The notes under the pieces are model-generated. The model was not told the origin of the DNA. It saw only the letters and a program-made list of their open reading frames with translations, and did no database searches. The position numbers and the translations under genes are program-made. Positions 244 through 4,766 of a DNA stretch of 25,244 bases are shown one piece after another (the first letter of the stretch is position 1; each line of letters starts with the position of its first letter). Source of the DNA: Patescibacteria group bacterium (GTDB lineage: Bacteria > Patescibacteriota > Patescibacteriia > UBA9570 > XYC2-FULL-38-9); NCBI GenBank assembly GCA_035290285.1, contig DATDUS010000015.1, positions 1-25,244 of the forward strand, read 5' to 3'.

Positions 244-351
244 ACGGGTACTGGATTTCTGTTTTCTGTGAAGAAGCGCCATTCAATTGAATGCAATAGC
301 GCAAGCGTGCATGAAATTGAATGGATGCCACCATAGACAAGCAGAACCCGC
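244..351. repeat. Long imperfect intergenic hairpin, element A of a dispersed family
   Basis: Termini ACGGGT...ACCCGC. Inner stem ccattcaattgaatgca (279-295) / tgcatgaaattgaatgg (308-324) with loop atagcgcaagcg. Outer pairs ttctg/cagaa and tctgtg/cataga. Confidence 0.7.
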
Positions 352-455
352 GAACATAATACGTATGCTGCAAAATGCAGAACACCCCAAAAAAAAACTT
401 CTCTTTTTTAAAGAGGGAATAGAATTATTGTGATTCCTTCAATTGTCAATGTTCC

Positions 456-482
456 ATACCTAAAAATAACGTTTTTAGGTAT
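456..482. other. Perfect 11-bp inverted repeat (operator or hairpin)
   Basis: atacctaaaaa-taacg-tttttaggtat in the AT-rich divergent intergenic region. Confidence 0.5.
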
Positions 483-687
483 AAAAAAACCTGATAATAG
501 ATATCATTTTTTAAAATGAAGGTATCAGATTGAGCAAAACTCTACTACAAATAAATTGTTATTGTCAAGAATCTTATACACATATAGTATTAAAAATATA
601 AGATCTACTATGTGTACATATAAAAAAAGAGCGCAGGCAACATAAAATTTTAGCTAATATTAGCAATATTTTTACATTCAAATCCTC

Positions 688-716
688 TTGTCATTTACTC
701 GCATTCATGGTATACT
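688..716 (+). promoter_or_regulatory. sigma70-type promoter of gyrB
   Basis: TTGTCA (688-693), 17 bp spacer, TATACT (711-716), with extended -10 TG. Confidence 0.75.
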
Positions 717-753
717 GCAAATCGATCAGTTTTTTAATGATTTTTCGCAAACT

Positions 754-2793
754 ATGGCAAAAAACAAGCAACAAGCTACGTCAGAATATGGCGCAAAACA
801 AATAACCGTTTTAGAAGGGTTAGAACCCGTCCGCAAGCGCCCAGGCATGTATATTGGTAATACAGCGCATAAAGGGTTGCATCATCTTATTTGGGAAGTG
901 GTTGATAACTCTATTGATGAAGCAATGGCCGGGCACTGTAATCAAATCGATATTACGCTTCTTCCAGATGGCTGGGTTTCAGTAGAAGATAATGGTCGTG
1001 GTATTCCGGTTGAAAAACACCCTAAAACAAAAAAATCAACCCTCGAAACAGTACTCACAGTGCTTCATGCCGGTGGTAAATTTGGTGACGGTGGATATAA
1101 AGTATCTGGTGGTTTGCATGGTGTGGGTGTTTCAGTAGTGAACGCGCTTTCAGAAGAATTGGTTGCAGAAGTAAAACGCGATGGAAAGTTATGGATGCAA
1201 GAATATGCGCGCGGAAAAGCAAAAAAGAATGTGCATGCAGTAAAACCGGCAAAAGGTACGGGCACAAAAATTTCATTTAAAGCAGATAGAACGGTTTTTA
1301 CTGTAACGGAATTTGATTGGAAATATATTATTGATCATCTTCGTCAACAGGCATATCTGACCAAAGGTATTCACCTCAATATTCGTGATGAACGAACAGA
1401 CGACACTCAAACATATGCATTCTATTTTGAAGGTGGCATTAAATCGTATGTGCAACATATCAACCGTACAAAAGATAGCGCGCAAGAAGAGGTGTTTTAC
1501 ATTGAAAAAGATGCAGAAAATATTAAAGTGGAAATCGCGCTGCAATATACCAAGGATTACAACGAATCGTTATTATCATTTGCAAATAATATACACACCA
1601 TCGAAGGTGGTTCTCACTTAATTGGTTTTCGTACTGCGCTTACCCGCACACTCAATAGCTATGCTCGCAAACAAGGATACTTGAAAGAAAAAGATGAAAA
1701 CTTAGGTGGAGAAGATGTTCGTGAAGGCCTCACTGCTATTGTTTCTATTAAAATTCCAGAACCGCAATTTGAAGGTCAAACAAAAGAGAAATTAGGGAAT
1801 GCAGAAGTGCGCCCAGTGGTTGAAAGCATTTTTGCGGAATATTTTGGCATATATTTGGAAGAGCACCCGCGTGATGGAAAAGAAATTTTGGGAAAATGTT
1901 TGTTAGCAAAACAAGCTCGCGAAGCAGCGCGTGCAGCACGTGATACGGTGCTTCGAAAAGGCGCTTTGGAAGGAATGACATTACCCGGGAAATTGGCTGA
2001 TTGTTCTTCTCGTGATGCATCGCAGAGTGAAATTTATATTGTAGAGGGAGATTCTGCAGGAGGTAGCGCAAAACAAGGGCGTAACCGTGAATTTCAGGCT
2101 ATTTTGCCACTGCGTGGAAAAATTTTGAATGTGGAACGTGCGCGCCTCGATAAAATGTTAGCCAACAATGAAATCAAATCGCTCCTTATTGCATTAGGTA
2201 CCAATATTGGCGAAATGTTTACCATGGAAAAGTTGCGCTATCATCGCATTATTATTATGACCGATGCTGACGTTGACGGAGCACACATTCGCACATTGCT
2301 TCTGACCTTTTTTTACCGCCATTTACAAGGGCTGATTACTGCGGGGCACGTGTATATTGCGCAACCTCCACTGTACCGTTTACAAAAAGGAAAAGATGTA
2401 CGTTACGCTTTTTCTGATGAAGAGAAAGAAAAAGTTCTCACTACCATGTTAGCAGAACAAGAAGAGAAAAAAGGGAAAGCGGCAAAAGAAAAAACTGTTG
2501 CAACTGCTGCTGTTGTTTTAGAAAACTCTTCTGAAACAAAAGATGCAGGCTCACAAGACATGGGCGAAAAAGTGGGCGGTATTTCCATTCAACGCTACAA
2601 AGGGTTAGGTGAAATGAACCCAAGTCAGTTGTGGGAAACAACCATGGATCCTGGTAATCGTGTATTATTACAAGTTACGCTTGAAGACGCAACAAAAGCT
2701 GATGAGATTTTTGACATATTAATGGGTACTGACGTTCCTTCTCGTAAACGCTTTATTCAAACCCATGCAAAATCGGCAAATTTAGATTTATAA
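754..2793 (+). CDS. gyrB: DNA gyrase subunit B
   Basis: [61 protein letters not shown] and [10 protein letters not shown] motifs. Start placed at ATG 754 because the ORF-track TTG at 688 is the -35 box. Confidence 0.97.
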
Positions 2794-2808
2794 GATATAA
2801 TTGAACAT

Positions 2809-3360
2809 GTGAATACGTTGCTGCTTATTACAAAATTGTTTTATTTTTTCTTACCTGCAGGTATTGCGAATATGGCGCCAGTTTTGGTGAAAAATCAATT
2901 TGTGTGGCTTGCGCGGCCAGTAGATTCGGGGCGCACATTGTGGGGCAAGCCGCTATTTGGCGATCATAAAACATGGCGAGGATTGATTTTTGCCACACTC
3001 TTTGGAGGTATTTTTTTCTTGATTCAGTATGCGGCTGCTTGGCAGTTTCCTGCGGCGTTTTCGTGGTTGGTGTTTGATATTACTATTCTTCCCTGGTGGT
3101 TTGGATTTCTGTTTTCATTTGGAGCAATAATGGGGGATTTGATAAAATCTTTTTTTAAACGGCGATTTCGTGTTTCGCCTGGAAGAAGTTGGTTTCCCTT
3201 TGATCAAATTGATTTTTTATTGGGTGCAGCGATTATTGCTATTTTGTTTTTCAACTTTACACCAGTTATTTGGTTAGTTATTATAACACTAGGGCCGTTT
3301 ATGCATATTGCATTTAATTACATCGGGTACTGGTTGAAATTAAAAGATTCTGCATGGTAG
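2809..3360 (+). CDS. carS: CDP-archaeol synthase-like (CarS/DUF46) CTP-transferase membrane protein
   Basis: ANMAPV, PVDSGR..GKPLFGDHKTWRG, GDLIKSFFKRR and PFDQIDF motifs typical of CarS; multiple hydrophobic helices; GTG start. Confidence 0.82.
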   Translation: MNTLLLITKLFYFFLPAGIANMAPVLVKNQFVWLARPVDSGRTLWGKPLFGDHKTWRGLIFATLFGGIFFLIQYAAAWQFPAAFSWLVFDITILPWWFGFLFSFGAIMGDLIKSFFKRRFRVSPGRSWFPFDQIDFLLGAAIIAILFFNFTPVIWLVIITLGPFMHIAFNYIGYWLKLKDSAW

Positions 3361-3369
3361 AGGTGTGTA

Positions 3370-3397
3370 TTGACAATGATTTTTGCTGATGTATACT
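3370..3397 (+). promoter_or_regulatory. sigma70-type promoter of secE-nusG-rplK-rplA
   Basis: TTGACA (3370-3375), 16 bp spacer, TATACT (3392-3397). Confidence 0.75.
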
Positions 3398-3442
3398 TAT
3401 TTCAAAGCCCGGGAAAGGGTTTTTTAAGTAGCATTCATTTAT

Positions 3443-3649
3443 ATGGAAGAAAAACAACAATTAGAACAGGGAAATCCTGTTATTGGCTATTTTAAAGGAG
3501 CCATACAAGAAATGAAAAAGGTGACATGGCCTTCCAAAGAAGAAACATGGCGAAAATCTTTAACCGTTATTTGGTTTAGTATAGGATTTGCCATTTTCTT
3601 AGGTGCGCTTGATTTTATTATGAATAAAGTGTTAGAAATTTTATTATAA
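3443..3649 (+). CDS. secE: Preprotein translocase subunit SecE
   Basis: EMKKVTWPSKEE motif, single C-terminal TM helix, directly upstream of nusG. Confidence 0.95.
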   Translation: MEEKQQLEQGNPVIGYFKGAIQEMKKVTWPSKEETWRKSLTVIWFSIGFAIFLGALDFIMNKVLEILL

Positions 3650-3652
3650 CGT

Positions 3653-4198
3653 ATGCCAAAACAAACTGCTCAACATGGACGTCGCTGGTATGTGATTCAT
3701 ACCTACTCAGGATATGAGGAAAACGTGGCGCATAACCTGCGTCAACGTATTGAATCACTCGGCATGGAGGACAAAATTTTTGATGTGATTGTTCCGAAAG
3801 AGAAAAAAATAAAAATTAGAAATGGAAAGCGTAAAGTAGTAGAGGAGAAAATTTTTCCAGGATATGTATTAGTAAACATGGTGGTGACCGATGATTCTTG
3901 GTATGTGGTGCGTAATACACCAAATGTGACCGGATTTATTGGTACTGGCACAAATCCAACTCCTATTGATGAAAAAGAGATGAAATCTTTAGAACGCCGC
4001 ATGGGTATTGAAGAACCTTCCTATGCTATTGATGTACAGATTGGTGAAACTGTACGGATTGTGGATGGACCATTTAAAGAATTGGAAGGAAAAGTTTCAG
4101 AAGTGGATACGAATCGTGGAAAGGTGAAAGTGATGGTAGCGATGTTTGGTCGTGAAACACCGGTAGAACTCGACTCATTACAGGTGAAGAAAATCTAA
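3653..4198 (+). CDS. nusG: Transcription termination/antitermination factor NusG
   Basis: [28 protein letters not shown], and KOW motif [13 protein letters not shown]. Confidence 0.97.
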
Positions 4199-4239
4199 TT
4201 TCCAGGCTTCTATGGAAGTTATTAACAAAATATAATTAT

Positions 4240-4662
4240 ATGCCAGAATTAAAGACACAAATTAAACTACAAATCCCTGCAGGAGCAGCAACACCTGCTC
4301 CGCCAGTTGGGCCAGCACTGGGTCAACATGGGTTAAATATTCAAGATTTTTGTACGCAGTATAATGCAAAAACAAAAGACAAACGTGGCGATATTTTGCC
4401 AGTTGTTATTAATGTATATGATGACCGTACGTTTGATTTTGTTATCAAAACTCCTCCAGCAGCAGAGTTGTTAAAAAAAGCAGCCAATATTAAAAAAGGT
4501 TCAGGAAATCCGTTGAAGGACAAGGTAGGCACAGTAACAAAAGCTCAAATTCGAGAAATTGCAGAAACAAAAATGCCGGATTTGAACGCCAATGATGTGG
4601 AAGCAGCAATGAAAATTATCGAAGGTACTGCTCGCCAGATGGGTCTCGAAGTAAAAGATTGA
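4240..4662 (+). CDS. rplK: 50S ribosomal protein L11
   Basis: [30 protein letters not shown] and [13 protein letters not shown] motifs. Confidence 0.98.
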
Positions 4663-4674
4663 AAAATTTTATTC

Positions 4675-4766
4675 ACCGTGGGTCTATCGCCTGCGGTCAA
4701 AACGCCATTCAATGCACGCTTACGCTATTGCATTGAATGGGTTTTCCCGCAGGCTCTGCCCGCGGT
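4675..4766. repeat. Long imperfect intergenic hairpin, element B
   Basis: Nested stems accgtggg/cccgcggt, gcctgcgg/ccgcaggc, aaaac/gtttt and a perfect 12-bp stem ccattcaatgca/tgcattgaatgg. Loop cgcttacgctat is the reverse complement of the element A loop at 11/12 positions. Confidence 0.75.

Follow-up and report, generated by a model that had tools for sequence, protein, structure and literature searches.

Why do two hairpins of one patescibacterial contig carry nearly the same loop, in opposite orientation, on outer stems that differ in sequence and yet pair? The contig (DATDUS010000015.1 of GenBank assembly GCA_035290285.1, from a Patescibacteria group bacterium; C15 of assembly G000 in our numbering) was analyzed over its whole length of 25,244 nt, which we call the window. 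It holds element A at positions 239-356 of the plus strand and element B at 4675-4766, where the top strand is the minus strand; by top strand we mean the one that bears the GYAA (GNRA) loop. A preliminary description had presented them as two distant hairpins. Both are real and both fold, but they are no special pair: A and B belong to a family of intergenic hairpins of 95-115 nt, which has at least 39 copies. On balance, and with modest confidence, we regard this family as an old, lineage-restricted, non-autonomous inserted element, similar to REPINs (repetitive extragenic palindromic doublets forming hairpins) and to miniature inverted-repeat transposable elements (MITEs).

A family of intergenic hairpins

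Element A is a full copy of the family, with outer ends TGTGA-ACGGGT ... ACCCGC-GAACA and a predicted RNA fold of -43.2 kcal/mol (z -5.7; the z scores of A and B refer to dinucleotide shuffles). Its conserved core spans 279-324, where inner arms at 279-295 and 308-324 enclose the apex AT-AGC-GCAA-GCG at 296-307; its GCAA tetraloop occupies 301-304. Element B is also a full copy, with an RNA fold of -54.9/-57.5 kcal/mol (z -7.9/-8.1) and a core at 4705-4740, in which ccattcaatgca (4705-4716) pairs with tgcattgaatgg (4729-4740) around the apex at 4717-4728. With DNA parameters the z scores are -2.9 for A and -6.9/-8.4 for B. As originally described, the loops match at 11 of 12 positions when read on opposite strands (ATAGCGCAAGCG on the plus strand in A, ATAGCGTAAGCG on the minus strand in B). 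The inner arms of A likewise equal the stem of B with 5 additional nt in each arm, together with a tandem G.A/A.G mismatch. The 32-nt core common to A and B was also returned by a repeat finder, as an inverted repeat with 88% complementarity. A covariance model built on the central 55 nt of the family (R1) scores both elements at 63.3 bits, over 275-329 for A and 4695-4749 for B.

These hairpins reside in a compact genome. The assembly comprises 1.05 Mb in 188 contigs, with 84% completeness and 38% GC; 91% of it is coding according to a greedy call of open reading frames (ORFs), and co-directional genes are separated by a median of 24 nt. When we report below that a gene family is absent, this applies to the 84% of the genome covered by the assembly. 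The 12-mer of the apex occurs 26 times in this genome, against a single occurrence of the reversed control, and a search with a profile of the core finds additional variants. The 39 copies are those that are unique after de-duplication, contigs of the same population included, and they amount to some 4 kb of the approximately 1.05-Mb genome; four weaker variants come on top of them (C18:3148, C31, C55 and C74:2743). The further copies anticipated in the preliminary description thus exist in number. Among metagenomes, the exact 20-mer TGCAATAGCGYAAGCGTGCA matched 27 stretches, of which 26 come from one metagenome of the Joint Genome Institute; 25 of these agree with the metagenome-assembled genome (MAG) at 100% identity, but are longer and span its contig gaps. 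The 27th stretch, from a second metagenome, turned out to be a chance match. Several contigs of the MAG and of the Logan collection terminate within family copies, and the practical effect of these hairpin repeats is that they break assemblies.

The 26th stretch of that metagenome is a contig of 1205 nt and 50% GC (L071, from Ga0208373), which carries a full copy at about 583-665, just upstream of a lipoprotein-like gene. It matches the MAG in the element alone, and its composition and remaining sequence differ. It is perhaps an unbinned piece of the genome, or else it comes from a second host.

The copies are found between genes (27 of 29) and usually occupy the whole spacer, the gene ends lying 45-65 nt from the apex on each side. 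Their orientation is random relative to the genes, with 9 copies in sense and 11 in antisense, 9 between convergent and 5 between divergent genes. Over the whole genome, 72% of the junctions are co-directional, 14% convergent and 13% divergent, which makes convergent junctions mildly enriched in copies (odds ratio 2.3, p = 0.046). No bias towards one replication strand was apparent from the local GC skew (18 vs 21 copies). The genes that are bracketed by two copies are ordinary ones, encoding a CAP-domain protein, ComEC and QueG. In the window, B is placed between the stop codon of rplK (4660-4662) and the leader of rplA. A scan for promoters and terminators called no such site at A or B, and it called a canonical hairpin-plus-T terminator after rplA, at 5535-5554.

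A nearly invariant apex on degenerate, paired arms

The base of the family hairpin is formed by an outer stem, (TGTGA)GCGGGT ... ACCCGC(GAACA), that is degenerate. Above it comes a middle stem, variable but often CTGCGGG/CCCGCAG, whose internal loops are rich in purines. Then follow the inner stem, CCATTCAATGCA/TGCAKTGAATGG, which is conserved, and a nearly invariant asymmetric apex, in which a 5' AU(A) bulge is followed by a GC helix of 2-3 bp capped by GYAA. Along the top strand, the 5' half of the fuller copies thus runs from (TGTGA)GCGGGTGA through a few bases, CTGCGGG and a purine-rich internal loop to CTCCATTCAATGCA. The apex AT-AGC-GYAA-GCG comes next, and the 3' half is made of TGCAKTGAATGGAG, AA, CCCGCAG, a few bases and ACCCGC(GAACA).

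Conservation is concentrated at the tip. The 20-nt core, TGCA-AT-AGC-GYAA-GCG-TGCA, is present in 31 of 35 copies; TGCAATAGCGTAAGCGTGCA is exact in 27 of the 35, and four more differ at the Y of the loop alone. Identity among copies is 70-80% in the 10 nt adjoining the core and 50-55% in the next 22 nt, which form the outer arms, against 50% in a shuffled null. Arm identity between any two copies is at most 81%, and every copy is unique.

The fold is nevertheless retained by all 38 copies that were tested (z from -9.3 to -3.6, median -5.6), in which the apex is enclosed by 34 pairs (median). Among 25 aligned copies, 82% of the cells are standard pairs and 14 of the 23 pairs have changed on both sides. 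The cells with changes on both sides number 74, against 31 +/- 4.5 in shuffles, and the covariation score is 0.304, against 0.126 +/- 0.015; none of 500 shuffles reached either value. Sliding the register by a single base halves the pairing in the same alignment. These controls bear out the covariation expected from the comparison of A with B. The outer stems, described as different in sequence but still pairing, do indeed prefer their own partner, since the duplex of the outer arms has -17.3 kcal/mol with the own partner and -13.2 kcal/mol with that of another copy (p = 1.7e-6).

Variants at the apex keep the hairpin as well. Most copies have GUAA or GCAA tetraloops, while the copies on C76 and C78 have GUA or GCA triloops, those on C105 and C31 have a longer apical helix with a UUCG cap, C(UUCG)G, and those on C18b, C74 and C55 have AGC/GCU or GAGC/GCUC apical helices. 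In the arms, 5-nt tandem duplications (ATTCA/TGAAT) are matched on both sides, in one, two or three units. Paired changes of this kind, beyond what shuffles give, were taken in the preliminary description to suggest selection on structure. The excess stands, but its cause is less certain, because stems can also arise and be repaired through template switching, paired changes of several bases included (PMC8794818). The paired changes in the arms, the ATTCA/TGAAT duplications among them, could thus stem from template switching rather than from selection.

Insertion at gene junctions in a single lineage

Copies of the family were gained by insertion at gene junctions of this lineage, in either orientation, as shown for at least two sites. 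One is the junction of murC and murB, which lie 111 nt apart in this genome with the hairpin filling the gap. In all 12 relatives compared, the spacer measures -28 to +2 nt, and the stop and the start codon lie within about 20 nt of each other. The other is the rplK-rplA spacer, which holds B and measures 177 nt here, as compared with about 50-70 nt in 10 of 13 relatives. These short spacers are essentially made of a conserved leader hairpin, GUGGGAG...ACCAC, that is also present after B. The two orthologous sites, empty in relatives, agree with the suggestion of the preliminary description that the hairpins are non-autonomous mobile elements or protein-recognized hairpins of single-stranded DNA (ssDNA) or RNA. 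They also bear on a different scenario, in which the core was inserted into existing terminator hairpins; this is ruled out at murC-murB, where the relatives have no spacer. The insertions may be old, because the relatives compared at these junctions are distant (about 59% identity for MurB and 88% for L11).

The family is restricted to this lineage as far as the searched genomes reach. R1 gives 44 hits at about 33 loci in the genome itself and none in 100 relatives, whose relationship ranges from a shared family to a shared class. In a set of 40 relatives, the 17 matches to the 12-mer were due to chance, as they have no TGCA flanks and no hairpin. The exact core gave nothing beyond two chance hits in 185,579 species genomes, was not found in viral contigs, plasmids or phages, and its matches in L055, L073 and L074 are chance occurrences without a hairpin. 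Only tRNA passes the gathering score of Rfam 15 in the whole window. At E values up to 10, Rfam offers only generic models of miRNA hairpins, at 14-17 bits against cut-offs of 70-100, and the family has no match there, in keeping with the initial impression. Our literature searches found no description of such elements in the candidate phyla radiation (CPR, or Patescibacteria). The contigs of public DNA runs are identical to the window and stop inside A and B, and two assemblies of the European Nucleotide Archive that have the same L11 protein carry an identical B.

The rplK-rplA junction drew our attention for other reasons too. The leader hairpin just upstream of rplA, at 4797-4831, consists of GUGGGAGAG, a stem-loop and CUCGUUUGCACCAC; it is present in the rplK-rplA spacers of at least 11 of 13 relatives, has no match in Rfam, and may be an autoregulatory site bound by L1. 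The nearest relative (G009) is syntenic with the window over gyrB-carS-secE-nusG-rplK-rplA. It has an unrelated 85-nt hairpin family of its own, with at least six copies at 86-100% identity (at C2:117904-117991 of that genome and in five other places; L088:1407-1494). One of the copies lies in the same rplK-rplA spacer, and another separates the thymidylate-synthase-like gene from the gene that follows, whereas the window has no spacer at that junction.

Mobile element, host signal or by-product

If the family is the inserted, non-autonomous element that we favor, the most likely mechanism would be a trans-acting protein that recognizes the apex on the folded single strand and copies or inserts the hairpin. 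The substrate would be ssDNA at the replication fork or an extruded cruciform, which we think likelier than RNA. The need for the fold would preserve the pairing of the arms, possibly with the aid of template-switch correction between them. From the distribution of conservation, we infer that the constrained recognition site is the folded apex and not the ends.

Several observations weigh against such an origin. The assembly has no match to Y1/RAYT transposases (PF01797), the kind of partner (RAYT or Y1-HUH) for which the preliminary description had proposed a check, nor to the TnpB zinc ribbon (PF07282), IS110, the RVT_1 reverse transcriptase or rve, whereas control genomes respond to these searches. 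The genome has no multi-copy proteins or ORFs, and its single DDE_Tnp_1 gene (267 aa, on C114) has ends unrelated to the family. We detected no target-site duplication of 4 nt or more around the copies, the longest flank repeat averaging 5.48 nt as compared with 5.26 nt in mismatched pairs of flanks; duplications of 2-3 nt would escape this comparison. Neither an empty-site allele nor an excision product appeared in three public DNA runs, which provided low-depth contigs only. Recent transposition is not evident either, because no two copies are alike in their arms. As a consequence, the invariant core requires either continuing selection, which would act on the element or come from the host, or else gene conversion; the neutral decay of selfish copies does not predict such a core beside saturated arms. 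The genome also encodes two tyrosine recombinases. Candidates for an autonomous version, with split arms flanking an ORF, came down to chance matches of 11-mers.

Could the host, instead, maintain these sequences? In a structured-RNA family, the top strand would be transcribed, either into small RNAs or into an element for processing, stability or termination, and selection on the RNA would keep both apex and pairing. We consider this unlikely. In its favor, the apex has a GC helix with a GNRA tetraloop (GUAA or GCAA), and stable loop types (GNRA, UUCG and GNA) are always on the same strand, also in the variants on C105, C31, C76 and C78. Yet GC-closed GNA and GNNA loops, such as minihairpins of the d(GCGAAGC) type, and sheared G.A pairs are stable in DNA as well. 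The mismatches of the top strand are rich in purines (53 purine-purine against 9 pyrimidine-pyrimidine in symmetric loops), with an excess of 201 to 116 in a strand-neutral alignment, and RNA parameters favor the top-strand fold in 21 of 27 copies; with DNA parameters, however, both strands fold equally well. A strong excess of G.U pairs on the top strand would have been a further argument, but this asymmetry of wobbles disappears in a strand-neutral count (69 G.T vs 58 A.C). The invariant core beside saturated arms does resemble the outcome of purifying selection on an RNA. On the other hand, given the random orientation of the copies (9 sense, 11 antisense), half of them would present the other strand in the mRNA. 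A and B have neither a promoter-like site nor a U-tract, and rplA has a canonical terminator of its own. The lack of an Rfam match and of homologues in the 100 relatives also speaks against an RNA family.

A host signal might also act at the DNA level. The apex of a cruciform or ssDNA hairpin might be bound by a chromosomal protein, for example for priming, processing of incoming DNA or nucleoid organization, and be maintained by the host. In favor of this, the copies lie without regard to orientation, either strand can fold with DNA parameters, old copies have kept the core unchanged, and convergent junctions are enriched about twofold. Still, we find this less probable than the RNA family: the signal is absent from all relatives searched, so its function would have to be new to one genus, and a chromosomal role is not suggested by forty sites per megabase that follow no positional order. 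The genome and its relatives moreover contain several other, unrelated hairpin families, which fit selfish spread better than a dedicated host signal. At the far end, the hairpins might be neutral by-products, quasi-palindromes made by template switching whose core was homogenized by gene conversion, without recognition or function. The known capacity of template switching to make and repair stems (PMC8794818) goes in this direction, and the matched ATTCA/TGAAT duplications resemble slippage followed by copying from arm to arm. But this leaves unexplained how the same core of 36-44 nt came to lie at about 40 junctions that are not linked to one another, even where the genes of all relatives abut, and why the asymmetric apex was never symmetrized. 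We give it very little credence.

Comparison with known elements

The family is best read as a hairpin element of REPIN/MITE type with the opposite polarity of conservation, namely a fixed apex and free arms. Like REPINs, which are mobilized by the Y1 transposase RAYT, these hairpins are extragenic, exist in many copies, measure about 70-110 nt and are predicted to form in ssDNA or mRNA; they occur in both orientations with frequent compensatory changes and no obvious target duplications, and they are specific to a lineage. REPINs have invariant 16-mer ends and a free central spacer with compensatory changes (Bertels & Rainey 2011, PMC3116915). Here the polarity is reversed, with an invariant apex and degenerate ends; the assembly has no detectable RAYT, the copies have no 5' motif of GTAG type, and they number tens rather than hundreds. 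MITEs such as Correia/NEMIS of Neisseria, RUP, ERIC and Nezha are also short non-coding intergenic insertions capable of forming hairpins, and the GCGGGT/ACCCGC ends of our family can be seen as weakly recognizable terminal inverted repeats. Contrary to MITEs, however, the family shows no target-site duplication, no parent insertion sequence (IS) or matching transposase and no near-identical copies, and its conservation peaks at the center while these ends are degenerate.

Other systems act on folded single strands. The ends of IS200/IS605 elements and of their miniature derivatives, the palindrome-associated transposable elements (PATEs), are strand-specific, bulged, imperfect hairpins that are recognized as folded ssDNA and insert without duplication. 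Those elements differ from the family in having a left-end and a right-end hairpin instead of one long hairpin; we saw no conserved tetranucleotide target and found neither TnpA (Y1) nor TnpB in the 84%-complete assembly. In the attC sites of integrons, of about 60-140 nt, it is likewise the folding of one strand that makes the recombination site, while sequence and length vary. Their conserved boxes are at the base and the tip varies, whereas here the tip is conserved, and they stand in ordered cassette arrays by an integrase gene, whereas our copies are single and scattered among housekeeping genes. Intrinsic terminators, finally, are GC-rich hairpins downstream of genes, which recalls the mild enrichment at convergent junctions, and repeated ones exist, for example the mycobacterial TRIT motif. 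But the family copies have no U-tract, lie in both orientations and include five between divergent genes, and they are unlike the ordinary hairpin-plus-U terminators of the same genome, such as the one after rplA.

Other repeats and neighboring features

The genome contains further hairpin and palindrome families. The window has one copy of a second, smaller hairpin family of 76 nt, at 6664-6739 on the plus strand. Its ends, GCGGGTGA ... GGACCCGC, are common with the A/B family, but only the ends are shared, and the interior is unrelated. Compensatory changes distinguish its copies, which include C13:1861-1937, C87:1591-1666, C108:2850-2925 and others. At 10876-10992 the window has a GC-rich intergenic element of 117 nt with GCGGGT...CCCGC ends, which folds less cleanly than the other families and has one related stretch, on C161. 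Elsewhere, a palindromic family of about 160 nt has at least nine copies at 90-98% identity, each matching its own reverse strand by about 72%; its sites include C17:2006-2166 and C56:12890-13050, and others are on C24, C29, C186, C145, C50 and C163. Lastly, one repeat measures about 170 nt and is bounded by 16-nt terminal inverted repeats (GAGCCTRTCCAYTATC type); its copies are 98-100% identical (L067:5130-5300), and it is found at contig ends of C25, C37, C41 (both ends), C57, C82 and C164. It looks like a recently active MITE, and in this it differs from the A/B family, as its copies are recent and near-identical. On C14, near 1935, an A/B-family copy has the right end of this repeat in place of its own right half.

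Two features of the window lie close to A and B. The 12-mer TTGTGATTCCTT occurs twice, at 62-73 and 428-439, in the non-coding DNA upstream of gyrB, on either side of A; a box of the origin region is one possibility. After rplA, the interval 5575-6663 holds two genes of 180 aa, which Pfam matches identify as dCMP/cytidine deaminase-like and P-loop (dNMP kinase-like), and which rule out an assignment to rplJ and rplL. Together with the adjoining thymidylate-synthase-like gene, they may form a cluster for nucleotide salvage.

Implications

A nearly invariant tip on near-random arms implies that something reads the folded tip, yet the assembly has none of the known hairpin-reading transposases. 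It is possible, though we hold it to be rather doubtful, that a machinery specific for hairpins, so far undescribed in the CPR, recognizes the GNRA-capped apex. The hairpins would then represent a new kind of mobile element, without a known transposase family, or signals maintained in ssDNA or RNA, and the unrelated hairpin families of the CPR would be lineage-specific versions of one system. What calls for explanation is that a compact CPR genome of about 1 Mb keeps some 40 copies of a 100-nt hairpin, some of them between genes that abut in every relative. The protein that reads the tip, if found, would explain such elements.

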